64,000 bases of DNA from Actinomycetota bacterium (GTDB taxonomy: Bacteria > Actinomycetota > Humimicrobiia > Humimicrobiales > Humimicrobiaceae), in assembly GCA_028698215.1 (NCBI GenBank), contig JAQVDY010000005.1, forward strand, positions 8,108 to 72,107, in the 5' to 3' direction. The translations under genes and the position numbers were made by a program. Position 1 is the first letter of the stretch; every line of letters starts with the position of its first letter. This document shows positions 3,373 to 25,245 of this stretch, one piece after another. The notes beneath the pieces were generated by a model. The model was not told where the DNA came from, did no database searches, and saw only the letters and a list, made by a program, of their open reading frames with translations.

Positions 3373-4560
3373 ATGGAAAATAAGATTAAGATAATAGAAA
3401 AAGCGCTTGAAGCTGGAAATGGTATTCTCAGGCTGAATCCAGCATGGGTAGCCAGGAATTTTTTGCCGCCTGGCAAAAGGTTGGGGCTGGCGGAAGATGC
3501 ATATGATAAAGGCCAGAGAGGATGGATTACTGAAAGATGGCTGGCATCAACCACCAAAGCTGATAATGCAATTGGTCCGGAGGATGAAGGGTTAAGCTAC
3601 CTGAATATTGAGGGAGCCAGCATTACATTAAAAGAGGCTATAGACCTGCTAGGTACCATAATTATGGGTAAAGAATATTCCCGCAGCCATAACGGGTTGG
3701 GAAGGTTGCCCAAAATTTATGATTTTGGAGACAGGATTCCTTATCACATACACCAGATGCAGAAAGATGCGGTAAAAGTTGGCAGGAAATCTAAAGATGA
3801 AGCCTATTATTTTCCAGAAGGAGTAGATGTCGGCCCTCACCCCGAAACCTTTTTTGGAGTCCACCCTTATATATATGACCAGAAAAAATTTGATATTCTT
3901 CTCCCTTACCTGGAAGATTGGAATAGCGACCTGATTTTAAAGCATTCCAGGGCCTACCAGAATACTCCAGGGGAAGGCTTTATTTTACCCAGCGGAATCC
4001 TACATGCCCCTGGTACGGCAGTCACTATTGAGCTGCAGGAGGATTCAGATGTGTTTTCAATGCTCCAGGCTCTAGCTGGAGGTAAAATAATATCTAAGGA
4101 GCTGTTGTATAAAGATATAAGCAAGCAAGATCGGGAAAAATATAAAGAGAGGGCTGTTCTGGACCAAATAAACTGGAAGGATTCTGCAGATCCCTATTTT
4201 TATGAAAACTATCACTTAGAGCCGCAATTAATAGAAGAGCAGGAAGGAGGCCGAGAATACTGGATTTATTATGGTACCAATAAATTTAGCGGCAAGAAAC
4301 TGGTTGTAGAACCGGGAGGTGAATTTACCAGTAAAGATAATGGAGTTTATAATATAGTTGCCTGGAAAGGTAAAGGAATTTATGGGGGGAATGTAATTGA
4401 AGCCGGCAATTTCGGCCTGGATGAGTTAATGGTAACCCATGACTGTGCCCTAAAACCTTTAATTATTAAGAATACGGGTAATGATGAATTAATTATATTT
4501 AAGTTCTTTGGACCCGATATAAATAAAGACCTACCTCAGCTAAAAAAATATAAACCTTAA
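3373..4560 (+). CDS. Type I phosphomannose-isomerase-like cupin protein (putative sugar-phosphate isomerase)
   Basis: 395 aa. It aligns by eye with ManA/PMI class I: RLPKIYDFGDRIPYHIHQ ~ RFPLLTKLLDVKEDTSIKVHP; KDEAYYFP ~ KTECWYII; GEGFILPSGILHAPG ~ GDFYYVPSGTLHAL. The Zn-ligand equivalents (H/Q, H, E, H) are retained. No search was run. Confidence 0.45.
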   Translation: MENKIKIIEKALEAGNGILRLNPAWVARNFLPPGKRLGLAEDAYDKGQRGWITERWLASTTKADNAIGPEDEGLSYLNIEGASITLKEAIDLLGTIIMGKEYSRSHNGLGRLPKIYDFGDRIPYHIHQMQKDAVKVGRKSKDEAYYFPEGVDVGPHPETFFGVHPYIYDQKKFDILLPYLEDWNSDLILKHSRAYQNTPGEGFILPSGILHAPGTAVTIELQEDSDVFSMLQALAGGKIISKELLYKDISKQDREKYKERAVLDQINWKDSADPYFYENYHLEPQLIEEQEGGREYWIYYGTNKFSGKKLVVEPGGEFTSKDNGVYNIVAWKGKGIYGGNVIEAGNFGLDELMVTHDCALKPLIIKNTGNDELIIFKFFGPDINKDLPQLKKYKP

Positions 4561-5190: not shown

Positions 5191-6020
5191 TTTAGTAATA
5201 CCAAACCCAAACAGGACATTGCTTATACAAAAAGATTAATTCATTTCACCTTCAAGCGCATAAAAATTTAAAGCACATTATTTAAATTATTGCCCTGCCC
5301 CTAATGTTTACTGAGATATTTATCTATTATTATGACTACTATATATTACTAATTAGTATAAAAGATATAATTATAGATGTCTATATTGTAACATTTGTTA
5401 TAATATGAAAAGATTTATGGTAAATTATCTTATATTTTATGCCTAAACTAATGGCTTAACCTGGTTTGATAGCAAATTAACTGAATAGTTTATATACCAT
5501 CAAATTTTTTTAAAATAATGGATTCTTATACATAAATAATAATAAATTAGGACCTTGGAGAATGGCCGGTTGGGCAAGGCCATGTTATGGAGATCTGAGC
5601 TTAAGTTCCAAAAATAATATTACTAGCGCTGACAGGGTTATAGTTAATCATTTATGAAAATATAAATTAATCATCTATCAGAAACAGAAGCAATTAAAAG
5701 GTCTATATTGGCCAAAGAGAAGAAACTTAAAAACAAAATAATTGAGTTAGAATAAATAGATTATTTTATTTAAATTTTTACATTTTATAGAAGTAGGCTA
5801 GAAAGGCATGTGAAAGCGACTTTTTTAGGACAAAGGGATATAAAAGCCTGGTAATAGCTCTAAACACTAGGAAAAATATAGAATAAATATAACTACCGAT
5901 AATATATATTATGTTAACTTTTAAATATTTTAACTATTTTCCCCATCATTCCAAATACTCTACTTATATCCCCTGTAAATATTGTATTTAAAAGTTTACC
6001 AAAAATAATAAAAGCAAATA

Positions 6021-6060
6021 AAAAGTACAGGGGTATTACAATTACCCCTGTACTTTTTCC
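6021..6060 (-). terminator. Bidirectional rho-independent terminator after fucI
   Basis: Perfect 15-bp stem AAAAGTACAGGGGTA (6021-6035), loop TTACAAT, then TACCCCTGTACTTTT (6043-6057). A and T runs flank both sides. It lies 37 nt beyond the fucI stop. Confidence 0.8.
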
Positions 6061-6093: not shown

Positions 6094-7893
6094 TTAAATT
6101 TTCTTATACAGTGACCCAAAATTCCTACAGGCCCTGTAGTCAGCCCCCTCCATATCCTTGGTGCCAAAAGCAGCCCAGGCGCTAGGCCTAAACAGCTTGC
6201 TATCATCAACATTATGCATGGCCACCGGTATCCTTAGCATAGAAGCCAAGGTTATAAGCAAAGCTCCAATGTGACCATAACTGAATACTGCATGGTTTAC
6301 TCCCCAGTTGTTCATAAGGGTATAAGTATCGTTAAAGGGAATCTTACCGGTTATTTTAGGAGCAAACCAGGTATTGGGCCAGGTTGGGTCGGTTCTGTCA
6401 CTTAAAATCTGGCCAACTTTTTCCGGTAAAGAAACGGAATAGCCTTCTGCAATTTGAAGTACAGGGCCCAGTCCCTTGATAAGGTTTATCCTGAACATGG
6501 TTACCGGCATATCACCTTTAGTTACAAAGTTAGCAGAAAAGCCGCCGCCCCTGAAGTATTCAACGTTTGCTGGCCTAAACTGGGAATTGGCCAAGGTAGC
6601 CTTAACTTCATCTTCAGTGATATCCCAGTATGGCTTCATGGCAGGTTTTCCGTCTATGCTTTGCTGACCTGTTCCGTCTAATGCTGCTGAACCTGAATTT
6701 ATCAGATGTATAATACCAGTTTTGCCATAGCCCTCTAAATCATACCCGGTTACCCTTTTTACTGCCTCTGGGCTCCAGAAGGTTCTTACATCAGCAAATA
6801 CCTGTGCGGTATTGGTTAAGAGATGTCCAAAAATCATGGGGACGCCATTTAAGGCATCGTTTTCTGTAGCCACCAGGTAAGGCTGTCTTATGCCGTTCCA
6901 GTCAAAGGAAGTGTTTAGCATGGTTTCAGTAAAATCACCATTGGGGAAATGATCAGTCCACTGGCGCTGTCCCTGAAATCCGGATGCTAAAGCATTATGG
7001 CCCATAGCTTCTTCCTTAAAATCAATATCGGCCAGTTTTGGATTTCCTACCATAAGATCTCTTACAATTAAAGTCATTTTAACCACAAATTCCCAATCAG
7101 CATCTTTTTGTGCCCTGGTTTTCTGAATGGCAGGCGAGTTATTATCTGGTCCTTCTGTAAGGTTTTTCTTTACCCAATCCAGTGCTTTGCTGTATTCCTG
7201 GTGGTCATAGATGTTCTCTTCTATTCTCCTGATTATTTCAGTGGAATCAACATATTCACATCTCATTCCCAGATAATCTTCAAAGAAATTGGGATCTACT
7301 ATGGATCCGGCAATACCCATAGAGGTATTACCTATGGAAAGATAGGATTTACCCCTCATGGCTGCCACGGCTAGGCCGGCCTGGGCAAATTGAAGCAATT
7401 TCTGGGCTACATCTGAAGGTATGGAGGTATCATCTGCATCCTGCACGTCTTTACCGTATATGCCAAAAGCAGGAAGGCCTTTTTGGGCATGTGCTGCCAG
7501 AACTGCTGCCAGATATACTGCTCCCGGCCTTTCACTGCCGTTAAAACCCCAAACTGCTTTGGGCCTGGTGGGATGCATATCCATGGTTTCAGAGCCATAA
7601 CACCAGCTGGGAGTAACGGTAATGGTTAGGCCTACCCCTTCCCTGGCAAATTTATCATCGGCCATGGTAGCTTCTGCTACTCCGCCTATAGTGGTGTCCG
7701 CAATAACGCACTCCACTTGATCCCCGCAAGGGTGCCTTAAGTTTTCTGAAATTAGTTTAGCGGCAGATTTAGCCATGTTCATGGTCTGGGTTTCCAGAGA
7801 TTCCCTTACCCCCTTCCTTCTGCCATCGATGGTAGGCCTGATGCCTATTTTGGGCAAGGTACCTATTAACCTGTTTTTGGTTGAATCGCTCAT
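6094..7893 (-). CDS. fucI: L-fucose isomerase
   Basis: 599 aa. Near-collinear identity to E. coli FucI throughout, for example [55 protein letters not shown] and [29 protein letters not shown] lies 9 nt upstream. Confidence 0.95.
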
Positions 7894-7923: not shown

Positions 7924-9168
7924 TTAATATTTTCCATACTCATAAGCTGCTTCCAGCATAGCTATAACATTCTGGGGAGGCACATCTGCCAAAATATTAT
8001 GTATTTGATTAAATACCATACCCCCACCCTCCCCTAAAATTTCAATTCTTTTTTTAACATCCTGCCTGATTTGTTCAGGGGTTCCCTTGGCCAGCACCTC
8101 TTGGGTATTACAGCCTCCACCCCAGAAAACCAGGTCATTTTTAAATTCTTTCTTAAGTTTTTCCGGTTCCATATCCCTGGCAGTGGTTTGAACTGGGTTT
8201 AATACATCTAAACCTGCATCAATTAATCCTGGTAAAAGCTCATAAATAGAGCCGCAAGAATGTAAAAATACCTTGCAGCTGCTGTTTTCATGTACAAAAT
8301 CCCACATTTTTTTATGGCGGGGCTTAAACACTTCATCATAGATTTCAGGTGACATGAATGGACCATCCTGTCCTCCCAGGTCATCACCAAACTGCAGCAA
8401 GTCAACATACTTCCCTACTCCATCAATAACCTTCTTTAACTTTACCAGATTTCTTTCTACCAGGGTGTCCAGCAGATACATGGTTTTCTTTTTATCGGTA
8501 TAAACATCCATCATAAAATTTGCCAGTCCCCTTAAAAATGTACCGGTTTCAAACATATTGCAGCCTACTGATAAAACTATGGAATAATCAGTCTCCTCAT
8601 ATAGCTTTTTAATGCCTTCCACAAACCGGTTAAATTGTTTAGGGTCAAATATGTTTAGATGCCAGGGCGGCGAAGGAATTGCCCACATATGCTTATCTAA
8701 ATCTTCATCATTGAATTCATCAGGGATAGATGGAAGGTTTTGGTAAATCCAAAAACACTGGTCTACGTAAAGGGAGGATGCTGGTTTCTTGCCCAGCCTG
8801 GTACCATTTTCATCTGAAACATATACGGTGTTTTTTTCATCAATTTCCACATTTAAAAATTGTGGTATTAAGCATTTAGACCCATCATTTAAGGTCCAGG
8901 TCCTCCAATCGTGTTCCGAGAGTAAGAACCCCTGTCCGGCATCAATGGCATCTATGTGGAAGTGTTTCATAATATCGCGTTGTGGAAAAGCAAGCTGCTG
9001 TATAAAGTCATACATCTTAGCCTGGCCACTTTCCTTTCCAAGCTCCTTTAACAGCTTATTGTAAGCAATAGTAGAAATACCTGAAGATCTCATGCTGCCC
9101 AGGTCAATGGGTATCCTGTCAGCGGTTTTATGTTCTAATATAGCCCTAATTCTTTGTCTGGAATTCAT
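7924..9168 (-). CDS. URO-D (uroporphyrinogen decarboxylase / MtaA-like methyltransferase) family protein, paralog 2
   Basis: Start trimmed to the internal Met (MNSRQRIRAIL...). It has SD GGGGAG 5 nt upstream and begins right after the stop of the upstream paralog. Family hallmarks are R-I-P-I-D-L-G near the N-terminus and the (beta/alpha)8 spacing. It parallels paralog 1 (TSYDRVIASLEHREPDRVPFDLGG). Confidence 0.6.
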   Translation of the reverse strand: MNSRQRIRAILEHKTADRIPIDLGSMRSSGISTIAYNKLLKELGKESGQAKMYDFIQQLAFPQRDIMKHFHIDAIDAGQGFLLSEHDWRTWTLNDGSKCLIPQFLNVEIDEKNTVYVSDENGTRLGKKPASSLYVDQCFWIYQNLPSIPDEFNDEDLDKHMWAIPSPPWHLNIFDPKQFNRFVEGIKKLYEETDYSIVLSVGCNMFETGTFLRGLANFMMDVYTDKKKTMYLLDTLVERNLVKLKKVIDGVGKYVDLLQFGDDLGGQDGPFMSPEIYDEVFKPRHKKMWDFVHENSSCKVFLHSCGSIYELLPGLIDAGLDVLNPVQTTARDMEPEKLKKEFKNDLVFWGGGCNTQEVLAKGTPEQIRQDVKKRIEILGEGGGMVFNQIHNILADVPPQNVIAMLEAAYEYGKY

Positions 9169-9181
9169 TTGGACTCCCCTG

Positions 9182-10345
9182 TTAGTATTTGCCAAAATCT
9201 TTTAATGTTTGCCACCAGGCCATGATATTTTCTGCAGGTACCGAGCTCTGTATGATGTGGATGGGAGAAAATATAAAGCCTCCTCCCGGAGCCAGGTCAT
9301 CAATTCTTCTTTTAGTTTCCTCTCTTACCTGTTGAGGAGTGCCAAAAGACATGATATTGTTATCACAGGAACCGCCCCAGAAGGTAAGATCTTGGCCAAA
9401 TTCTTTTTTAAGGGTTTTGGTATCCATTCCCTTGCAGTTAACCTGTACCGGGTTAAGGATATCCACTCCTGCTTCTAGGAGTAAAGGTATAGCCTCTTTT
9501 ATGGCTCCATCACAGTGGAAAAATATATAAACTTTGGATTTAGCCTTCTTTTTTATAAATTCAAACAGTTTTTTATGATAAGGCCAGATCAATTCCCGGT
9601 AGAGGTCCAGAGATACCAGCAAGCTGTCTTTATTGCCTAAATCATCAGCGGCAGATACCACCAATACATTATCCCCAACTGTTTCTAAAGCCTTCTGCCA
9701 ATAAGCCATTTTTATCTCCAGAAACTTGTCCATAATGGCCTGTACCATCTTTTTATTACATAGCATATCCATAAAAAATTGTTCATAGCCCCTCATCCAC
9801 ATGGCATTTTCCCACATCCCGGCACTCATTCTTTCTAAAAAATAAGCCCTCTTTTCCTCTTTTACTATCTGATCCGCTTTTTCTTTCAATTCTTCAAACC
9901 GGGCTGCATCAATTGGGTCCGGCCAGGGATAATTTTCTATGTCCGTAATAGTTTCGGCCTGCTGCAGGGGGCTTTGATAAATATCATAATAATGGCCTCC
10001 CTCTACCGGCATCCTGTATTCTATCCCGAACTCATCTATTAATCCGCAGTAATTATCTTTAATTCCCAAGTTCCGGTATAAACCTGGATTTTTTGGAGGA
10101 TTAGGAGCTACATTTTTAATATCAATTTCTAATTGTTCTATGATGTCCTGTTCCATTTTACCCAGTTGAGTAATGGTATCCCAGACTTCAGCCCGGCCCT
10201 TCAAGCCCAAAAAGTTTCTAAGATTATTTAGGGCCTTTATATTTATGCCCGCCACCAAGGCTCCACCCAGATCAAATGGAACCCTGTCCGGCTCCCTATG
10301 CTCAAGTGAAGCAATTACCCTGTCATAGCTTGTATATTTATCCAA
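9182..10345 (-). CDS. URO-D family protein, paralog 1 (probable TTG start, translationally coupled to AOR)
   Basis: The tool ORF (to 10567) overlaps the AOR 3' end in another frame. The homologous N-terminus starts at LDKYTSYDRVIASLEHREPDRVPFDLGG. The only start codon after the AOR stop (10356) is TTG at 10345. The C-terminus (VLNPVQ...FWGG...PGGGFIF) parallels paralog 2. Confidence 0.55.
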   Translation of the reverse strand: MDKYTSYDRVIASLEHREPDRVPFDLGGALVAGINIKALNNLRNFLGLKGRAEVWDTITQLGKMEQDIIEQLEIDIKNVAPNPPKNPGLYRNLGIKDNYCGLIDEFGIEYRMPVEGGHYYDIYQSPLQQAETITDIENYPWPDPIDAARFEELKEKADQIVKEEKRAYFLERMSAGMWENAMWMRGYEQFFMDMLCNKKMVQAIMDKFLEIKMAYWQKALETVGDNVLVVSAADDLGNKDSLLVSLDLYRELIWPYHKKLFEFIKKKAKSKVYIFFHCDGAIKEAIPLLLEAGVDILNPVQVNCKGMDTKTLKKEFGQDLTFWGGSCDNNIMSFGTPQQVREETKRRIDDLAPGGGFIFSPIHIIQSSVPAENIMAWWQTLKDFGKY

Positions 10346-10355
10346 TTTTTTAACT

Positions 10356-12239
10356 TTATTTATTTTTAAATTCAGTAAGTTCCAATTCCAGTAACTTGTG
10401 ATCGGTGGGTTTTCCCCCAGTATCCCACCCTGCCAGTTGATAGTAAAGCTGTTTGGCCTCCATAAACTGTTTTTTATCCAGGTGCATCCCTTGGTTCGGG
10501 CCATTTTCAATAGGTTCAAATATCCTGTCTGGCAGAATATCTTCTCCAACCTCTTCCCGCAGGGCAAACAACTTATACATATTTATCCTTTTTTCTCCAA
10601 TCTTAACCAGCTCAAACAAAGAAGTTTCCCATCCAGTCACCGCATCTATTATATCTACCAGATACTGAAAATTAAAAAATCTAACTGGGGAAAAGGCAAA
10701 AATACAGCCGCATAGTGCATCCAGCATAGAAAAAGCCGGCTGCAGTAAAAAAAACATCCTCACTTTGTCTTGATTTAGTGAATCTGCTGGTAACCGGTCA
10801 TATACGGTAAGTGGCGCCACCTTGTCCATAAACATTTGGTTTGCCTGAAAATCAAAGTCAGTATCATGTTCAACCACAGTATAGTAAGGGCCAATGGGAG
10901 AGACAGCGTAGCCTAATCCCAGCATTTGTTTAATTCTGGGTTCATGGAATGGCATTTCCATACCCTTTATATGCATCGCAAATTTTTCTGAACCCTGGAT
11001 ATGGTAGGAGGCCAGCCTTACCCCCTCGGCCAGGGTATCACCAATGGATTTTCTCTCCATAATCATGGTGGCCATCTTTAACATGGCCTGGGAATCACCC
11101 CACCTTAAACAGGTCCCCATGGTATCATCAGGGCTGATTAGCCCGTTTTCATAGCATTCCACTGCATAGCCCAATATGTTTCCCAGGGAGGTTCCGTCTA
11201 CCCCATAGTCGCAAATCATATTCCATAGCTTTAAGGTGGCTTCCATATCATCTACCAATAAATTGTAAGAGGTGGCAGCCAGGCTTTCCAGCTCGATAAG
11301 GCCGAACTCAGGATTAAGGTTAATATCCTTTACAGAAGGCAGCCTTTTTTTACACCCTCCCTGGCAGTGGGAACAGTTATGGTTCTCAGGGGCATATTTA
11401 TCAGCAATAGTGAAGCCATCTATGGATTCCGCCTTATCAAAGTAGGAATAATGAAAATTTTTAGCTGAAAGCATTCCCTGGTCAGATAATAGCTTTAGAT
11501 ACCCTGCATTGCTGGCGGGTCCATGCTGGCTTTCATTTAAGGGGTTGGTTAAAAAATTTTGCTCAAAATATTTGGAAACCTGGCCTAGCTTTTCAGGATT
11601 ACTGACCTTGATAGGTTTCTGGCCGTATACGCATAATGCTTTTAAATTCTTAGAACCCATTACTGCTCCCACACCACACCTTGAACTTATAAAACAGTTG
11701 TCTGTAATTATGGAAGCAAAACGAACCAGTTTTTCCCCTGCTGGCCCAATTAAGGCTATGCTGTGGCGGTTCAAGTCTTCCTGTTGGGTTAGAATGTTAT
11801 AAGCTTCAGAAGTTTTAAGCCCCCAAATATGATTAGCCTCTAAAAATTTTACTTCACCGTCATTTATCACTATCATGCAGGGCTTTTCAGATTTACCTTT
11901 TATAATAATAGCATCAAAACCAGATTTTTTAATCATTTCACCCAGGTAACCGGGAGTAGTAGCTTCCCCTATCAGGTTAGTTAAAGGAGACTTGGTAATT
12001 ACATTGTGCATGGCAGTTCCCGCACAATCCACTCCTGTAATGGGGGAAGTGGAAAAAATAAGGATATTATCCGGGGATAAGGGATCAGTTTTGGGCTTTA
12101 AATTCTTAAGTAAAAAGTAAGCTGCCAAGCAGGCCCCACCAATATATCTGCGGTAAAATTTATCATCTAACTTTATTGATTCTACCTGCTTATCGGTTAA
12201 ATCTATTTGTAAAACTTTGCCATTGTAACCAAAAGACAT
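10356..12239 (-). CDS. Aldehyde:ferredoxin oxidoreductase family protein (tungsten/molybdopterin, [4Fe-4S])
   Basis: 627 aa. AOR N-terminal signature MSFGYNGKVLQIDLT plus the conserved tungstopterin-binding and Cys-cluster regions. The ATG lies 4 nt after the ABC ATPase stop. Confidence 0.85.
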   Translation of the reverse strand: MSFGYNGKVLQIDLTDKQVESIKLDDKFYRRYIGGACLAAYFLLKNLKPKTDPLSPDNILIFSTSPITGVDCAGTAMHNVITKSPLTNLIGEATTPGYLGEMIKKSGFDAIIIKGKSEKPCMIVINDGEVKFLEANHIWGLKTSEAYNILTQQEDLNRHSIALIGPAGEKLVRFASIITDNCFISSRCGVGAVMGSKNLKALCVYGQKPIKVSNPEKLGQVSKYFEQNFLTNPLNESQHGPASNAGYLKLLSDQGMLSAKNFHYSYFDKAESIDGFTIADKYAPENHNCSHCQGGCKKRLPSVKDINLNPEFGLIELESLAATSYNLLVDDMEATLKLWNMICDYGVDGTSLGNILGYAVECYENGLISPDDTMGTCLRWGDSQAMLKMATMIMERKSIGDTLAEGVRLASYHIQGSEKFAMHIKGMEMPFHEPRIKQMLGLGYAVSPIGPYYTVVEHDTDFDFQANQMFMDKVAPLTVYDRLPADSLNQDKVRMFFLLQPAFSMLDALCGCIFAFSPVRFFNFQYLVDIIDAVTGWETSLFELVKIGEKRINMYKLFALREEVGEDILPDRIFEPIENGPNQGMHLDKKQFMEAKQLYYQLAGWDTGGKPTDHKLLELELTEFKNK

Positions 12240-12243
12240 AATA

Positions 12244-13752
12244 TTAAATATAATAGCTTCCTATTTCTTTACTAACTATATTGTAGCTATCTGCATCCTT
12301 GTTCACGTTTTCAATTTCCCCTACGATTTTTTTGTCCCTGAATATATATATTCTATTAGCCAGCTTAATAATCTCCGGCATATCCGAAGATATTAATATG
12401 ATAGATTTTCCAGACTTATGGGCCAGGTTATATATAAGTTGGTGGATGTATTCCTTGGCCCCTACATCCACGCCTATGGTAGGTTCATCAAATATAATGA
12501 TATCGCAGTCCGCTACCAGCCATTTGGCGATACTGACTTTCTGCTGATTTCCACCACTTAGCTTTCCTGCTATTTGGTTGAGCCCGGTAGTACGGATATC
12601 TAGGTTATCCACCATATCTTGGGCATGCTTCCTTTCTTTGTTGCCGTCAATAAACCTCAATATTTTGCTGGCTATCCTAGGCCAGATGGTAATACTGATA
12701 TTGGTTTGCAAGGTACTGCCCAGCAGAAGGCCTTCTTCCTTTCTATTTTCAGTAACATAACCCATCCGGTACCTGTATAGGCTATCAGCTATGGACCGGG
12801 GATTGATTTTTTTGCCTTTTAAGAATACTTCCCCAGACTGCCTCCGGTCCTCTCCAATGACAAGCCTGGCTAACTCGGTTCTGCCAGCACCTACCAATCC
12901 ATAAAAACCTAAAACTTCACCCGGGTAAAGTTTAAAGCTAACATCTTCAGCCTTGTGCTCCTTATAGATATTTTTTGCTTCCAATAAGGCTTTTCCGTTA
13001 TCCAGGGATTCAAACTTGAATGATTCAATCTTTTCTTCCCTGCCTATCATCATCTTTACCAAATCCTGTTTATCTACTTCGCTGATGGGTCTGGTTCCAA
13101 TTTTTTTACCATCCCTTAGTACGGTAACCATATCGCATACCATAAACACTTCTTCCAGTTTATGGGTAACAAACAAAATGATTATGCCTTTTTCCCTTAG
13201 ACCTTTTAGTATTGAAAAAAGCTTTTCTGCCTCGCCTTCAGAAATTGAAGAGGTAGGTTCGTCCAGAAGTAAAATTTTGGATTTGGAAGCCAATGATTTG
13301 GCTATCTCCACCATCTGTTTCTGGGCAACACTAAGCTCGCCAATAGGTTTGGTAGGGGGAACTTCTAATCCTACCATATCTAGATATTTCTTAGCAGTTT
13401 GATTAATTTTTTTCCAGTTAAGTACACCGGTCTTACCGTAAGTTACCATTTTGTCCAGCATAATATTTTCAGCCACACTATATCTGGGCAAAACCTGTAG
13501 CTCCTGGTTAACCACACTGATTTCTTTTTTCAAAGCATCTATGTAGTTTTCCACTACCAGTTCGTTAGAATTAAGATACATCTTACCGCTATCAGGCATG
13601 TGCACACCACAAATTACTTTAATTAAAGTGGATTTGCCTGCACCATTCTCCCCTAAAAGAGCATGTATCTGGCCCTGTCCAAATTCAACCGACACATCAT
13701 CTAACGCCTTTACTCCCGGAAAAGACTTACTTATGTTTTCTAACCTTAACAC
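12244..13752 (-). CDS. Sugar ABC transporter ATP-binding protein (RbsA/MglA-type, duplicated ATPase)
   Basis: 502 aa with two NBDs. Walker A GENGAGKST, LSGGNQQK signature, second NBD GLVGAGRTEL. GTG start with SD GGGGGA 8 nt upstream. Confidence 0.9.
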   Translation of the reverse strand: MLRLENISKSFPGVKALDDVSVEFGQGQIHALLGENGAGKSTLIKVICGVHMPDSGKMYLNSNELVVENYIDALKKEISVVNQELQVLPRYSVAENIMLDKMVTYGKTGVLNWKKINQTAKKYLDMVGLEVPPTKPIGELSVAQKQMVEIAKSLASKSKILLLDEPTSSISEGEAEKLFSILKGLREKGIIILFVTHKLEEVFMVCDMVTVLRDGKKIGTRPISEVDKQDLVKMMIGREEKIESFKFESLDNGKALLEAKNIYKEHKAEDVSFKLYPGEVLGFYGLVGAGRTELARLVIGEDRRQSGEVFLKGKKINPRSIADSLYRYRMGYVTENRKEEGLLLGSTLQTNISITIWPRIASKILRFIDGNKERKHAQDMVDNLDIRTTGLNQIAGKLSGGNQQKVSIAKWLVADCDIIIFDEPTIGVDVGAKEYIHQLIYNLAHKSGKSIILISSDMPEIIKLANRIYIFRDKKIVGEIENVNKDADSYNIVSKEIGSYYI

Positions 13753-13782
13753 CTTTTAGTTCCCCCTACCCTTCATATAATT

Positions 13783-14913
13783 TTATTTAAAATACTCTGT
13801 TTTGGCGCTTTCAGCTAAATCAAAAGCAGCCTGCCAAAGCTCATCCATGAAAGTATCAATATTATCCTGGGTAATAACTACACCAAAAGTATCGATAAAT
13901 GTATGGTCAGCCTTGGGCTCCAATCCATCTATCAGGTATTCCAGCAATAAAGGAGTAACATAACCCTGGCAGTATGGATTCTGGCCAAAGGTACCGGTAA
14001 TATAACCCTGCTCAACAGCCTTAAGTACAGCAGGATCATCATCAATACCAACAAAGGCTATACTGTCATTTTCCATTTCAGTAAGTATCTGAGCAACAGC
14101 TACAGTAGGATTGTATCCGGTGGTAACTATACCATTAATAGAATCTCCGCCAGCAGCTAATGCATTACTTACCTTTTCTATACATTCTTCCAGTTCATTC
14201 ATGTCACCTATGGTTTGCACTATTTCTACATCTGGATATTTGGCAGCAACTTCCTCCACGCCTTCTTTTCTGAGAATGGTGTTTGGATCGGTTACTACTT
14301 CCAGGACATTCAGTATTCCGCCTTTATAATCCATAGCTTCACATACTCTTTCAGCAGCTTCCATGGCAGCAGCCTTAACATCGGTAGCCACGGTAAAAGA
14401 TGCAGGAGTAGGCTCTTGGGTCTGAGCACCATAATTACATACCGGAACGCCTTGATCTACTACCTCTTGATATAAAGCATTAGCTCCAGCTGCATCCAGC
14501 GGGAAAACCATAAGTCCATTATAGCCCTGGGCTATTAATGCTTCTACCTGCTCATTTTCAGTAGGCTGGGTCCAGTCTGTACCTATTTGGGAATAAACTT
14601 CTACCCCGAAATCCTCAGCATGTTTAGCCAGGCCCTTTTTTACGGACTCATAGTATGGGTGAACTGCCGGCCAATAAGAACCCAACTTGTATTTGCTGGT
14701 ATCTACTGCTTCTTCAGCAGCCTCTTCAGCTTCTTCCACTACCGCTTCAGCAGCCTCTTCAGTTTCTTCCACTACCGCTTCAGCAGCCTCTTGAACTTCC
14801 TGGGCTGCTTGCTCTACTGTCTCTGCAGCGCCGGCGCAACCGCTAAGCGGAAGAGCCACTGCTAGTGACAATACCAGCAGGACCATTATAATTTTTGATA
14901 AATGCCTCTTCAT
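13783..14913 (-). CDS. Sugar-binding lipoprotein (ABC periplasmic binding protein, RbsB/PBP1 fold) with an acidic repeat linker
   Basis: Signal peptide with lipobox LSGC-AG. An Ala/Glu-rich linker (EAAEAVVEE x3) is followed by a periplasmic-binding-protein type I fold. SD AGGTGA. Confidence 0.8.
   Translation of the reverse strand: MKRHLSKIIMVLLVLSLAVALPLSGCAGAAETVEQAAQEVQEAAEAVVEETEEAAEAVVEEAEEAAEEAVDTSKYKLGSYWPAVHPYYESVKKGLAKHAEDFGVEVYSQIGTDWTQPTENEQVEALIAQGYNGLMVFPLDAAGANALYQEVVDQGVPVCNYGAQTQEPTPASFTVATDVKAAAMEAAERVCEAMDYKGGILNVLEVVTDPNTILRKEGVEEVAAKYPDVEIVQTIGDMNELEECIEKVSNALAAGGDSINGIVTTGYNPTVAVAQILTEMENDSIAFVGIDDDPAVLKAVEQGYITGTFGQNPYCQGYVTPLLLEYLIDGLEPKADHTFIDTFGVVITQDNIDTFMDELWQAAFDLAESAKTEYFK
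14712..14800. repeat. 33-bp in-frame tandem repeat (about 2.7 copies) encoding the AVVEEAEEAAE linker
   Basis: CTTCAGCAGCCTCTTCAG(C/T)TTCTTCCACTACCG occurs at 14712-14744 and 14745-14777, with a partial copy at 14778-14800. Confidence 0.85.
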
Positions 14914-14995
14914 TTACTATCACCTTTCTTTATGGTTTTATTGATAATACAGTTCTAATTTATTGCCACTACATAACCCCTCACCTCCATTTTTT

Positions 14996-15964
14996 TTATT
15001 CTATCAACCTTCTTTGATTGTATATATTTCTAACTCTGTCAATGGCTACTGCCAGCAGAATCAATAGTCCCAGGTATGCCTGTTCCCAATAAACATTGGT
15101 CTGCAGTATAATAAGACCGTTTTTAATCATTACCATAATAGCCCCACCTAAAAGAAGCCCGAATGCGGTAATAGAACCACCACTAAGAGCAGTACCTCCC
15201 AGAATAGCTACGGCAAAAGATATGATCAACCAGTCTTGTCCGGTAACCGGAGGTGCTGTACCCATTCTGGATATATAAAGTACTGCAGCCAGGGCGGCAA
15301 CAAAACCCGATAGTATATGGCTGAGTAATTTTATTTTGTCTGTATTTATACCTGAAAACTTGGAAGCTTCCAGGTTTTCTCCTACGGCCAGTATCCTTCT
15401 ACCTACTAAAGTATATTTAAAAAAGAGAAACATGATTATAAGGGCAAAAAGAGTGAAGATAAAAATATAGGGAATCCCAAACACTTTGCCTTTCCCCAAT
15501 ATGGTAAAAGTTAAGGGGATATTTACAAAAGAAAAACCTTGGGTAAAACCAAAATTTATACCAGTAAAGATAAATGAAGTAGCCAGGGTAACAATGAAAG
15601 CGTTTATGCCAAACTTGGCAGTAATAACCCCGTTTATGGCTCCGCAGGCTATACCTACCACTAATGCGGCAATAGTAGCTACTGCTCCATGTATTCCATG
15701 GATATCCATCAGGTATCCTGCAGTAATGGTAGCCAGACCGCCTATAGCACCCACTGATAGGTTCATGTCACCCACTACCAAGACCAATCCTTGAGCCAGC
15801 CCTATAAATACATATAAAGACAGCGTTCGGCCGGTAGTATACATGTTAAAAGGTGTCAGAAAACTGTCAGAAAAAATTGAAAGTATGGCAAATAATATCA
15901 TGGTTGCTATAAACAACCCAAAGTTTCCGCTGGTCAATATGTCTCTTATGTAGTTTTTTTTCAA
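14996..15964 (-). CDS. Sugar ABC transporter permease (RbsC/BPD-TM family)
   Basis: 322 aa, about 10 TM segments typical of RbsC. TTG start with SD GGGGAG 7 nt upstream. Confidence 0.85.
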   Translation of the reverse strand: MKKNYIRDILTSGNFGLFIATMILFAILSIFSDSFLTPFNMYTTGRTLSLYVFIGLAQGLVLVVGDMNLSVGAIGGLATITAGYLMDIHGIHGAVATIAALVVGIACGAINGVITAKFGINAFIVTLATSFIFTGINFGFTQGFSFVNIPLTFTILGKGKVFGIPYIFIFTLFALIIMFLFFKYTLVGRRILAVGENLEASKFSGINTDKIKLLSHILSGFVAALAAVLYISRMGTAPPVTGQDWLIISFAVAILGGTALSGGSITAFGLLLGGAIMVMIKNGLIILQTNVYWEQAYLGLLILLAVAIDRVRNIYNQRRLIE

Positions 15965-16016: not shown

Positions 16017-16760
16017 TCAGCTGCTTAATATTTCATCCTGTTTTTGGGAACTTTGTATCTGGCTATAGTTATTTTTTACAAATTCCAGGTGCTCTCTGAT
16101 ACTGGTTACTGCTTCATATTGTTTTTTATTTTTTATATTATTAAAAATAGTTCTGTGATCCTGCAAAGTGTTTTGCATTACCCCTGGTATTTCAGTAGTT
16201 TTAATAAGTATTTCAGTCATACAATATTTCAGGAGAGGAAAAATGATATCAAAATATTTTTTAATTACCTGGTTATGGGATGCTTCTGACAGCTTCTGGT
16301 GAAATTCATAATCCAGCCTTACGAACTCTTCGCTATTTTGCTTCCTAATATAGAAATCAGTAAGTTCCAGGTTTTCTTCCATTCCCTTTAAATCACTCTC
16401 ATTAGCGTGGTCAATGGCTGCCTGCACAGCAATTGACTCAAATAATTCCCTGAATTCCAAGAGGTCGGGCACTATCTTTTCATCCGGTTTAAAGGTGATA
16501 CGGGCCGGGTTAAAAAAAGAATTAATGGAAAAATCCTTGATATATGCCCCTACTCCAGGTTTGATTTCAATTACATCTACCAGCTCCAGTGCCTGAAGGG
16601 CTTCCCTTACGCTTCCCCTGCCGGTTTGATAGATGCGGCAGAGCTCATTTTGAGAAGGTAGAAGCTGGCCTGAGTTTAATTTACCTTGCCCAATATCTTC
16701 CAAAATCCGGTCAATAATAATTCTAGGAGCTTTCTTTTTTACACTCATCATACCTGTCAT
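16017..16760 (-). CDS. GntR-family transcriptional regulator (FadR/FCD subfamily)
   Basis: N-terminal GntR wHTH (LPSQNELCRIYQTGRGSVREALQALE) plus a C-terminal all-helical FCD-like domain. It sits 52 bp upstream of the permease and is co-oriented, so it is likely the first gene of the operon. Confidence 0.8.
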   Translation of the reverse strand: MTGMMSVKKKAPRIIIDRILEDIGQGKLNSGQLLPSQNELCRIYQTGRGSVREALQALELVDVIEIKPGVGAYIKDFSINSFFNPARITFKPDEKIVPDLLEFRELFESIAVQAAIDHANESDLKGMEENLELTDFYIRKQNSEEFVRLDYEFHQKLSEASHNQVIKKYFDIIFPLLKYCMTEILIKTTEIPGVMQNTLQDHRTIFNNIKNKKQYEAVTSIREHLEFVKNNYSQIQSSQKQDEILSS

Positions 16761-16848
16761 ACAAGTGTTATTGTTTTTAAATATTAGGCAACATTTAAAT
16801 AAAAGTCAATATAAAACTGCTAAAAAAAGAAATTAAAACAATTATTAT

Positions 16849-16888
16849 TGTTAACGTTTACATTATTAAAAAACAATTAATTTGTCAA
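16849..16888 (-). promoter_or_regulatory. Operon promoter (minus strand TTGACA-17-TAATGT) overlapped by a cre/LacI-type operator TGTTAACGTTTACA
   Basis: -35 is the reverse complement of 16883-16888 and -10 the reverse complement of 16860-16865. The 14-bp palindrome-like operator at 16849-16862 fits WTGNAANCGNWNNCW with one mismatch and overlaps -10/+1. Confidence 0.55.
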
Positions 16889-16897
16889 GTTTTTTCG

Positions 16898-17908
16898 CTA
16901 AGAAGTAGAGCTCCTGATTACAAGGTGTGTTCCCAGCCTGATAATTAAAGGCGGCTCATTTCTGTAATTTGATGGTTTGTTAATTTTTTTTATGATAAGC
17001 TCGGCTGCAGTATTGCCCATACTGTACACCGGTTGATTTATGGTGGTGATGGGAGGATCGGTTATCTGGGTCCAGTCCGGGTTGTCAAAACTTAATATGC
17101 CAATATCCCGGGGAATGTGCAAACCTTTGTTTTTTATGGCCAAAACCGCTCCTAGTGCCATATCCAGGTTAGTAACAAATATAACTTCCGGTCTTGGGTC
17201 GGCCTCCACTAGTTCGGTTGCTAAATTTATTCCACTTCTTTTTTTAAAATTACCAGTTTTTATTAAACCAGGGTCAATATTTATGTTTGCCTCAGTCAAA
17301 GCCCGCTTATAGCCCTCCAGCCGCTCTGCCCCCGTAGTCCGGTCAGGAAAACCATTAATAATAGCAATTCTTTTATATCCCCTGCTGATAAGGTATTTTA
17401 TTGCTTCATATGAGCCTTTTTCATTATCTACCAGGACTGCATCATTTTCCAATCCGGGTACTAGTCTGTCTACCAGTACTATCTGCATCCCTGATTTTTT
17501 TAAAAAATCAATATAGCTGGCATTCTTTCCGGTAGGAGTCAATATTATGCCGTCAACCCGGTTGGCTTTTAAAATCCTTAAATACTTTAGTTCTTTTTGG
17601 GGATTATCATCCCCATTGCATAAAATAAGGCTGTAACCCTCCTCTATGGCCACATCCTCTACTGCTTTAGCTAAAGTTGAATAAAATTGTGACAGCACAT
17701 TTCCTACAATAATACCCAGGGTATTGGTCTTTTCTCTTCTAAGGCTGCTGGCCACTGCGTTTATTTCATAATTGAATTGGGAGGCCACCTTCAGGACTTT
17801 TTTTTTGGTTTCCTCTTTTACTCCAGGATAATTGTGCATTACCCTGGACACCGTAGCGGTGGAAACACCTGCTTTACTGGCTATGGTTTTTATATTAATT
17901 TTTTTCAT
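16898..17908 (-). CDS. LacI-family transcriptional regulator
   Basis: Start placed at MKKINIKTIASKAGVSTATVSRVM (LacI HTH). A periplasmic-binding-protein-like effector domain follows. The longer tool ORF reads through the upstream operator. Confidence 0.85.
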   Translation of the reverse strand: MKKINIKTIASKAGVSTATVSRVMHNYPGVKEETKKKVLKVASQFNYEINAVASSLRREKTNTLGIIVGNVLSQFYSTLAKAVEDVAIEEGYSLILCNGDDNPQKELKYLRILKANRVDGIILTPTGKNASYIDFLKKSGMQIVLVDRLVPGLENDAVLVDNEKGSYEAIKYLISRGYKRIAIINGFPDRTTGAERLEGYKRALTEANINIDPGLIKTGNFKKRSGINLATELVEADPRPEVIFVTNLDMALGAVLAIKNKGLHIPRDIGILSFDNPDWTQITDPPITTINQPVYSMGNTAAELIIKKINKPSNYRNEPPLIIRLGTHLVIRSSTS

Positions 17909-17919
17909 GGCTTTATTTA

Positions 17920-17933
17920 TGTTAACGTTTACA
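17920..17933 (-). promoter_or_regulatory. Second copy of the operator TGTTAACGTTTACA, just upstream of the LacI start
   Basis: The 15-mer TGTTAACGTTTACAT is identical to 16849-16863. It lies 12 nt upstream of the LacI ATG, a geometry consistent with autoregulation. Confidence 0.5.
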
Positions 17934-17965
17934 TAATAAGCTAAAAAAAACATAAAATCAATAAG

Positions 17966-18523
17966 CTATGTCGATTTCTTAACTTCAGCCGGATTCCCGA
18001 AAGCCAAGCAGTTGGGGGGTATGGATTTTAACACCAGGGAATGGGCCCCAATAGTAGTATTTTCCCCTATTTTTACAGGTCCCAGTGCAGTTACACCGGT
18101 ATACAGGATAACATTATTTTCAACTACCGGATAACCTGGTTGGCCATGGTGGAACATGGAATGCCCCAAGCCTCCCAGCACCACATTGGAAAAAATACTG
18201 ACATTGTCTCCCAGCTTTACTCCCCTGCCTATGACCACTCCAGAAGAATGCCATATCCTGCACCCTGAACCAATTTCTGCCCCAGGGTCAATTTCCGCTC
18301 CGGTAAACCAGAAATTAATACGGCAGCATATTTCTGCCAACAGAGCCAGCCTTATCTTATAGAGACGGTGGTAAAATCTATAAAAAACTAAAGCTTGAAC
18401 CCCCGGCTTAACCAGTATGATCCTAACCGCCCCCCAAAAGGAAGGCCTGCCCTTTAAAGTTCCATATTTACTAAAAAGGCGCCTTACATCTCCTACCAGG
18501 CTGCCCTGTTTAGTGTTTGCCAT
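17966..18523 (-). CDS. Serine O-acetyltransferase-like hexapeptide-repeat acyltransferase (short CysE type)
   Basis: YRFYHRLYKIR...GAEIDPGAEIGSGCRIWHSSGVVIG...GDNVSIFSNVVLGG matches the CysE left-handed beta-helix core. The gene is not next to any cys genes. Confidence 0.65.
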   Translation of the reverse strand: MANTKQGSLVGDVRRLFSKYGTLKGRPSFWGAVRIILVKPGVQALVFYRFYHRLYKIRLALLAEICCRINFWFTGAEIDPGAEIGSGCRIWHSSGVVIGRGVKLGDNVSIFSNVVLGGLGHSMFHHGQPGYPVVENNVILYTGVTALGPVKIGENTTIGAHSLVLKSIPPNCLAFGNPAEVKKST

Positions 18524-18535
18524 ATCGATTATTGA

Positions 18536-18928
18536 TTATTTGTTTAGATATTTAAATACCAGACTGTGAAAATCCCGTTTATAGAAAAGTTTTATATTGA
18601 TATGGGGATAAAGCTCCTTAATTCTTTTAATCTTCCGGTTTTTTTTGGTAACCAGCTTCTGGTTCATGGTAGTAAGCTCTATGAACAAGTCATAATCACT
18701 TAAATAGAAATCAGGAGTAAAGCTCTCCAATACATTTCCTTGGCTATCCCAGCTCAGAGGGAAAGTTTTGGGCTCATACTCCCATTTTATTCTGTAATAA
18801 TCCAATATTTTGGCAAATTCCTTTTCACTTTCATGGGCAAACTTTATTTTTTCAGCATTAATAAAAAGTGAATCGGGTTTATTGGCTTTATTAATATTGT
18901 CTATTACTTCTGGTTTATTTCCCTTCAT
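18536..18928 (-). CDS. Hypothetical protein, possible PD-(D/E)xK nuclease fold
   Basis: 130 aa. HESEKEF ... TPDFYL ... DLFIELT..K resembles an E / PD / ExK arrangement. The start overlaps the upstream stop (TAATG). Confidence 0.35.
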   Translation of the reverse strand: MKGNKPEVIDNINKANKPDSLFINAEKIKFAHESEKEFAKILDYYRIKWEYEPKTFPLSWDSQGNVLESFTPDFYLSDYDLFIELTTMNQKLVTKKNRKIKRIKELYPHINIKLFYKRDFHSLVFKYLNK

Positions 18929-25167: not shown

Positions 25168-25245
25168 TGGTCGGGACGAGAGGATTTGAACCTCCGACCC
25201 CCAGTACCCCATACTGGTGCGCTAGCCAAACTGCGCCACGTCCCG
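25168..25245 (-). tRNA. tRNA-Pro (anticodon GGG), CCA encoded
   Basis: Hand-folded cloverleaf. Acceptor CGGGACG/CGTCCCG, D-stem GCGC/GCGC, anticodon stem CCAGT/ACTGG with loop AUGGGGU (anticodon GGG), T-stem GGAGG/CCTCT with loop TTCAAAT, discriminator A, then CCA. Confidence 0.85.

Follow-up and report, generated by a model that had tools for sequence, protein, structure and literature searches.

Local, autoregulated sugar repressors of the LacI/GalR family, of which RbsR and PurR are examples, combine a helix-turn-helix (HTH) with a sugar-binding core, recognize an even palindrome with a central CG, and have sites before their own gene and before an adjacent catabolic or transport operon (Ravcheev et al. 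2014, PMC4052901). Within the family, autoregulation applies to 72% of the regulators studied, and 1173 of 1303 have an even palindrome with a central CG (PMC4052901). The locus described here lies in a 64-kb stretch of DNA, referred to as the window, and shares with them the HTH, the sugar-binding core, the palindrome, and both site positions, with tandem sites also being seen in its relatives. It differs from the RbsR and PurR type in three respects: the window protein scores under the equivalog cut-offs of both (220.7 versus 382 for RbsR, 223.5 versus 501 for PurR), the tandem sites of its relatives are 16 bp apart as opposed to the peaks at 13, 22, and 32 bp reported for the LacI family, and the operator is here fused to the last base of the -10 element.

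Three further systems provide points of comparison. With the CcpA-cre system of Bacillus megaterium and Bacillus subtilis (PDB 1rzr and 3oqm), the locus has in common the best solved structure, a near-identical recognition helix, and a fit to the cre consensus, whereas two contact residues are exchanged, the score is below the model cut-off, and in the loci sampled the sites lie beside the regulator gene. FucR, which is listed with "Fucose" for Bifidobacterium (PMC4746261), is likewise a predicted sugar-specific regulator linked to fucose utilization in a member of the Actinomycetota. Regulators of the GntR family with an FCD domain, i.e., the FadR/FCD group (NanR, LldR, and PdhR-like proteins), share with the second regulator of the window a GntR HTH, the FCD domain, and a GT-N-AC inverted repeat before their own gene; the window GntR protein differs in being an equivalog of no named member, with the NanR subfamily as its best NCBIfam match (115.5 bits against a cut-off of 260).

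Placed beside these systems, the LacI operator pair reads as ordinary, textbook LacI-type repression, here in an uncultured lineage, and a literature search found no published regulon work on this Humimicrobiia-like Actinomycetota lineage among the titles listed. The interest of the locus lies mainly in that lineage, in the nested two-regulator operon, in the 16-bp operator arrays, and in an uncharacterized set of aldehyde:ferredoxin oxidoreductase (AOR), URO-D-like, and fucI genes. The window has a G+C content of 39.5%, which is low for Actinomycetota, and the source labels of close relatives (P0001, P0088, and P0113) disagree, most being given as Actinomycetota and others as Actinomycetia, as Candidatus Humimicrobiaceae or, for one 59% relative, as Candidatus Atribacteria.

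The first-pass annotation had noted an exactly duplicated 15-mer before a LacI-family gene and before the promoter of the neighboring operon, and both copies were recovered at the positions given in Table 1. All genes of the region are on the minus strand, and in that reading the 15-mer is ATGTAAACGTTAACA, which is an A followed by the 14-bp TGTAAACGTTAACA, a LacI-type near-palindrome (TGTAAAC followed by GTTAACA) with a central CG and symmetry at six of seven positions. The sequence common to the two copies ends at the borders of the 15-mer, with zero extra identical bases on either side, which excludes a longer segmental duplication. Both copies are intergenic, bracket the LacI-family gene, and each lie on the -10 element of a sigma-70-like promoter. 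A fit to a generic LacI/cre pattern had been proposed. Such a pattern, TGNNANCGNTNNCA, matches these two positions and nothing else in the 64 kb, and when up to one mismatch to the symmetric consensus TGTAAACGTTTACA is allowed, the same window gives 2 matches against 0.025 expected (200 block shuffles). A second, adjacent operator at 16 bp was not found, there being no other match with up to three mismatches near either site. A near match at 5912 was taken as chance, having two mismatches and no central CG and lying beyond the fucI terminator.

Table 1. Positions of regulatory elements and genes in the window (all coordinates are those of the window)
Feature	Position	Strand	Remarks
15-mer TGTTAACGTTTACAT	16849-16863 and 17920-17934	+ (reading)	Exact duplicate
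Operator O_lacI, TGTAAACGTTAACA	17920-17933		The 15-mer adds base 17934; exact in L006 and L007
Operator O_P1, TGTAAACGTTAACA	16849-16862		Identical to O_lacI; exact in L006 and L007; equivalents between lacI and fucI in positional orthologues
P_lacI -35, TTGATT	17956-17961	-	22 nt before operator base 1, the modal distance in relatives
P_lacI -10, TATTAT	17933-17938	-	Final T is operator base 1
P1 -35, TTGACA	16883-16888	-	Kept in L006 and in lacI-fucI spacers of relatives
P1 -10 candidate, TAATGT	16860-16865	-	17-nt spacer; overlaps operator bases 1 to 3
P2	16781-16809	-	TTGACT (16809-16804), 17-nt spacer, TAATAT (16786-16781); promoter of the GntR module
Putative GntR/FadR-type operator, ACTTGTATGACAGGT	16752-16766		Inverted repeat ACWTGT-N3-ACAKGT; abuts the gntR start codon
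Hexapeptide acyltransferase gene	Stop at 17966	-	Upstream neighbor of lacI
LacI-family regulator gene (lacI)	16898-17908	-	336 aa; recognition helix VSTATVSRV
GntR regulator with FCD domain (gntR)	16017-16751	-	First operon gene; PF00392 52 bits, PF07729 79.5 bits; start at 16751 set by comparison with orthologues
Sugar-type ABC transporter	12244-15964	-	BPD_transp_2, Peripla_BP_4, two ABC_tran domains
ABC permease	14996-15964	-	
ABC binding protein	13783-14913	-	
ABC double ATPase	12244-13752	-	
AOR gene	10356-12239	-	Pfam AFOR_N and AFOR_C
Two URO-D/MtaA-CmuA-like genes	7924-10345 (9182-10345, 7924-9168)	-	Pfam URO-D; starts set by comparison with L007
L-fucose isomerase gene (fucI)	6094-7893	-	Last operon gene; 1078 bits with the fucI equivalog of NCBIfam (cut-off 775)
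Terminator-like hairpin	6016-6053	-	11-bp stem GTACAGGGGTA/TACCCCTGTAC, then TTTTTATTT; read from sequence

The protein encoded between the two sites has the domains of a sugar-responsive LacI-family regulator. A LacI-type HTH is found at residues 6 to 48 (PF00356, 55.9 bits, cut-off 27) and is followed by a type I periplasmic-binding-protein-like effector core (Peripla_BP_1/3; PF00532, 111.8 bits, and PF13377, 103.4 bits). Leu56 is invariant in 40 homologues and aligns with the hinge leucine of CcpA (ARGL versus ASSL), and it is the candidate for the leucine that the hinge helix would insert at the central CpG. The protein is under the cut-off of every NCBIfam equivalog model, and against a collection of genome contigs it gave only matches of 26 to 35% identity, from unrelated phyla. 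A form of the protein with 351 aa (P0148), which falls in the same cluster, is on record from a 460-kb contig.

Evidence for a function of the sites comes from related loci. A metagenome-assembled genome contig, L006 (GCA_022396035.1; also L007), is fully syntenic and encodes a LacI protein that is 82% identical; both 15-mers and the -35 hexamers are kept exactly in these contigs, while the spacers and the downstream bases differ. In a wider sample of 78 non-redundant metagenome loci encoding LacI homologues of 57 to 65% identity, 110 matches to TGTAAACGTTTACA with up to two mismatches were found. Of these, 108 fall within the 20.5 kb that directly flanks the lacI genes and 2 within the remaining 557.6 kb, corresponding to an enrichment of about 1,460-fold beside the homologous lacI genes; the loci were chosen for encoding such a homologue, and sites remote from these genes fall outside the sample. 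A site is present within 140 bp upstream of lacI in 60 of the 76 loci having at least 100 bp of upstream sequence. Positional orthologues, which have the same upstream housekeeping genes and the order hexapeptide transferase, lacI, and fucI, also carry one or more sites between lacI and fucI.

The relatives further share a stereotyped arrangement of promoter and operator, in which TTGACA and a 17-nt spacer precede TATAAT or TAAAAT, the last T of which is operator base 1; this fusion is found in 42 of 74 related promoter regions. The operator consensus of the clade is TGTAAWCGWTWACA. Tandem operators, two or three in number, occur in relatives (L028-L083 and L102) at 16 bp from start to start in 32 of 33 pairs, and the window carries a single operator per promoter with no tandem array. 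Sequence changes in the reading head of the protein are matched by changes in the site. The helix VSTATVSRV is paired with TGTAAWCG, the helix VS[AT]TTVSRV of a sub-clade is paired with TGAAATCG or TGGTATCG, and the helix VSSATVSAV of a positional orthologue with 52% identity (L096) is paired with TCTATACGTATAGC. Recognition helix and operator co-vary across orthologues, with the operator being conserved alongside its regulator, and conservation, linkage, and co-variation are the standard comparative-genomic criteria for assigning a LacI-family operator.

At the promoter level, P_lacI fits the stereotyped architecture exactly, with 17 nt between TTGATT and TATTAT. The promoter that had been proposed before the operon, TTGACA and TAATGT at a 17-nt spacing, was found as described. 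Its -10 is a weak match to the consensus (three of six positions), and an alternative, AATAAT at 16867-16862, would have a spacer of 15 nt; as the P1 -35 lies two bases closer than in the stereotyped architecture, TAATGT is taken as the best candidate. O_P1 lies 35 bp beyond the stop codon of lacI. The ATG of this gene occupies 17908-17906, with 11 nt between the start codon and the 15-mer, and the leader from operator to ATG is just 11 to 12 nt, AAATAAAGCC in the window (17909-17919) and TATTTTAAACT in L006 (9990-10001). No clear Shine-Dalgarno sequence was found in the lacI leader of the window or of L006, and the lacI leaders of more distant relatives are 40 to 60 nt long.

From the observed sequences, their conservation, their linkage, and their co-variation, we infer that the LacI-family protein binds the 14-bp operator at both P_lacI and P1 and represses its own gene as well as the operon, a reading that we consider very probable. 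The suggestion that one repressor combines autoregulation with control of the operon is upheld by orthologue conservation, motif enrichment, the stereotyped architecture, and the matched variation of helix and operator. In this model, a dimer of the protein would occupy both operators. At P_lacI the operator would cover the last base of the -10 element and the transcription start, and at P1 it would cover the -10 element and the start of the gntR-ABC-AOR-2x URO-D-like-fucI operon; bound repressor would exclude RNA polymerase, giving negative autoregulation together with repression of the operon. As inspection of the stretch from lacI to P1 revealed no terminator-like site, it is conceivable that the P1 operator additionally blocks read-through from lacI. 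Release of the repressor would follow from binding of a sugar effector in its periplasmic-binding-protein-like core. No other gene is linked to the regulator as constantly as fucI, and for this reason the effector may be fucose-related, although this is a guess from gene linkage to which we give somewhat less than even weight.

Other modes of action at these sites were considered and set aside. DNA looping between the two window operators, which are spaced 1,071 bp apart, is unlikely because the 336-aa protein appears from its alignment to be of the dimeric type, matching dimeric proteins of the CcpA/PurR type over its full length and having no C-terminal extension. A role as an activator was rejected, since each of the two sites overlaps the -10 element and the transcription start. 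An RNA element at the sites is also unlikely, as an Rfam search of the region returned no family at gathering thresholds.

The significance of the duplicated 15-mer could be questioned, as the same 64-kb window contains about a dozen other, unrelated pairs of exact 15-mers and exact duplication alone is consequently weak evidence. The two copies could then lack any regulatory role and be a coincidence or the remnant of a promoter duplication. The comparative data effectively refute this reading, which we regard as extremely improbable: the copies form a palindrome with a central CG that is present far above shuffled expectation, both are kept in L006 despite diverged flanks, and the motif is strongly enriched beside homologous lacI genes. 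If the sites are functional, they could instead be cre boxes for a global CcpA-type regulator acting with HPr-Ser-P in carbon catabolite repression, as the first-pass annotation had also raised. ATGTAAACGTTAACA indeed agrees with the cre consensus WTGNAANCGNWNNCW, CcpA bound to cre comes closest among solved structures (1rzr, E 1.5e-62), and the recognition helix VSTATVSRV is close to the VSMATVSRV of CcpA, an almost complete identity that accounts for the resemblance. The CcpA equivalog model TIGR01481, however, gives 211.9 bits against a cut-off of 442.35. The arginine that contacts HPr-Ser46-P (R304 in B. subtilis, R303 in B. megaterium; for the role of R304 in B. subtilis CcpA, see PMC4591507) is aligned to Glu303, a residue that hardly varies within the clade, and the cre-contacting Met17 is replaced by Thr17. 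The motif is moreover tied to lacI paralogues, with 2 of 110 matches in 578 kb lying away from lacI genes (in loci chosen around lacI homologues) and with other catabolic operons on the same contigs, such as IclR-DHDPS and the FGGY/ADH genes, lacking it. The CcpA/HPr-kinase system is characteristic of Bacillota, and the source labels put the lineage in Actinomycetota. A cre pair is accordingly disfavored and, in our judgment, very unlikely.

A rival of a different kind accepts LacI-type operators and proposes that several close LacI paralogues, possibly as heterodimers, bind the same sites, so that the operon would integrate several sugar signals. One locus, L102, stems from the same sequencing project as contigs with the exact protein of the window and encodes two LacI paralogues that are 66% identical and have the same helix, VSTATVSRV. 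In L102 the first lacI is preceded by TGTAAACGTTAACA, the second by AGTAAACGATAACA, an FGGY gene by TGTAATCGTTTATA, and fucI by a tandem array of three sites (11064-11109); the sites before the first lacI and before fucI are exactly the window operator. With two paralogues having the same helix and operator, the adjacent LacI protein need not be the sole binder, and cross-binding between LacI paralogues is plausible on sequence grounds. Homologues heading fucI, TRAP-transporter, and ABC-transporter operons likewise use the same operator pair. Placing L102 in the genome of the window is nevertheless an assumption, orthologues that have been rearranged, and not paralogues, may account for some of the differing contexts, and small differences at positions 6, 9, and 11 or in the flanks could give specificity; we therefore hold shared occupancy to be possible but not the likely arrangement. 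Broader still, and rather unlikely, would be an expanded set of LacI paralogues (57 to 66% identical, with identical helices) acting on one operator and one promoter cassette, in which the -10 is fused to the operator and one to three sites are 16 bp apart, and on which their sensors would converge. If this were true, the sugar operons would be cross-regulated collectively and not by one regulator per operon. As a separate observation, L102 also encodes a TIR_2-domain protein (408-1058) and a PemK-family toxin together with a small partner encoded upstream of it (5442-6001).

Repression of both promoters by the adjacent LacI-family protein remains our preferred reading, and to it a second, nested control can be added. 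The proposal that the GntR regulator acts as a second input is supported, and it can be refined in that this regulator is served by a promoter of its own, P2, and by a conserved inverted repeat just upstream of gntR. An inverted repeat with a GT-Nx-AC core is typical of GntR-family operators, and the ACTTGTATGACAGGT element has a single occurrence in the window. Orthologues of the GntR protein, at 52 to 100% identity, always have a TTGACT-type -35 followed about 40 nt on by ACWTGT-ATG-ACAKGT, which occurs once per locus and directly upstream of gntR in seven independent contexts. In L099 this putative operator is a perfect palindrome, ACATGTATGACATGT, and both the ACWTGT-ATG-ACAKGT element and P2 are also present upstream of gntR in the LacI-free operons of L099 and L101. 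P2 and ACTTGTATGACAGGT, which lie 50 to 100 bp further downstream, would belong to the GntR/FCD regulator, which would separately gate P2 and may hinder transcripts from P1.

The operon of the window is composite, since its GntR-ABC-AOR-URO-D-URO-D module is found in three settings. It stands alone, without lacI, in L099 and L101; it lies behind a different LacI protein, a B12-binding protein, and an MttB-family methyltransferase in L094 and L097; and it lies behind the fucI-type LacI protein in the window, L006, and L096. The operon can be read as a LacI-controlled P1, ancestrally or elsewhere the promoter of fucI, then the GntR module with its own promoter and predicted repressor, then fucI, the direction of the rearrangement being one that we infer. 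The B12-binding and MttB neighbors in L094 and L097 hint that a sugar-like substrate, once transported, may be subject to corrinoid-dependent methyl transfer.

The operon behind P1 comprises nine genes, from gntR to fucI. The URO-D genes give weak MtaA/CmuA matches, far under the cut-off. The association of URO-D-like genes with fucI is independent of the GntR module, as four loci (L090, L092, L041, and L046) have URO-D-like genes beside fucI and TRAP or ABC sugar transporters in the absence of that module. That the regulator is linked to fucI, AOR, and URO-D/MtaA-like genes suggests an uncharacterized catabolic route, the inducer of which could be found through the LacI-family repressor. The operator consensus, the promoter architecture, the nested regulators, and the operon with its terminator together constitute a testable regulatory model for a sugar locus of an uncultured low-GC lineage, and the motif is usable for finding the regulon in metagenome-assembled genomes of this group.

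The remainder of the 64-kb window is housekeeping in character, with a tRNA at 25171-25245 and no other sugar operon. Open reading frames at 18536-18928 and 3373-4560 have no Pfam match, and the position of the one that encodes 130 aa is kept across many related contigs, in the order BFN domain gene, hyp130, hexapeptide transferase. Within the operon, the 5' part of the ABC binding-protein gene contains about 2.5 tandem copies of a 33-bp unit (window 14712-14792), which show as repeated 15-mers at 14712, 14745, and 14778 and represent a repetitive N-terminal linker that is the source of a spurious Apolipoprotein Pfam match.
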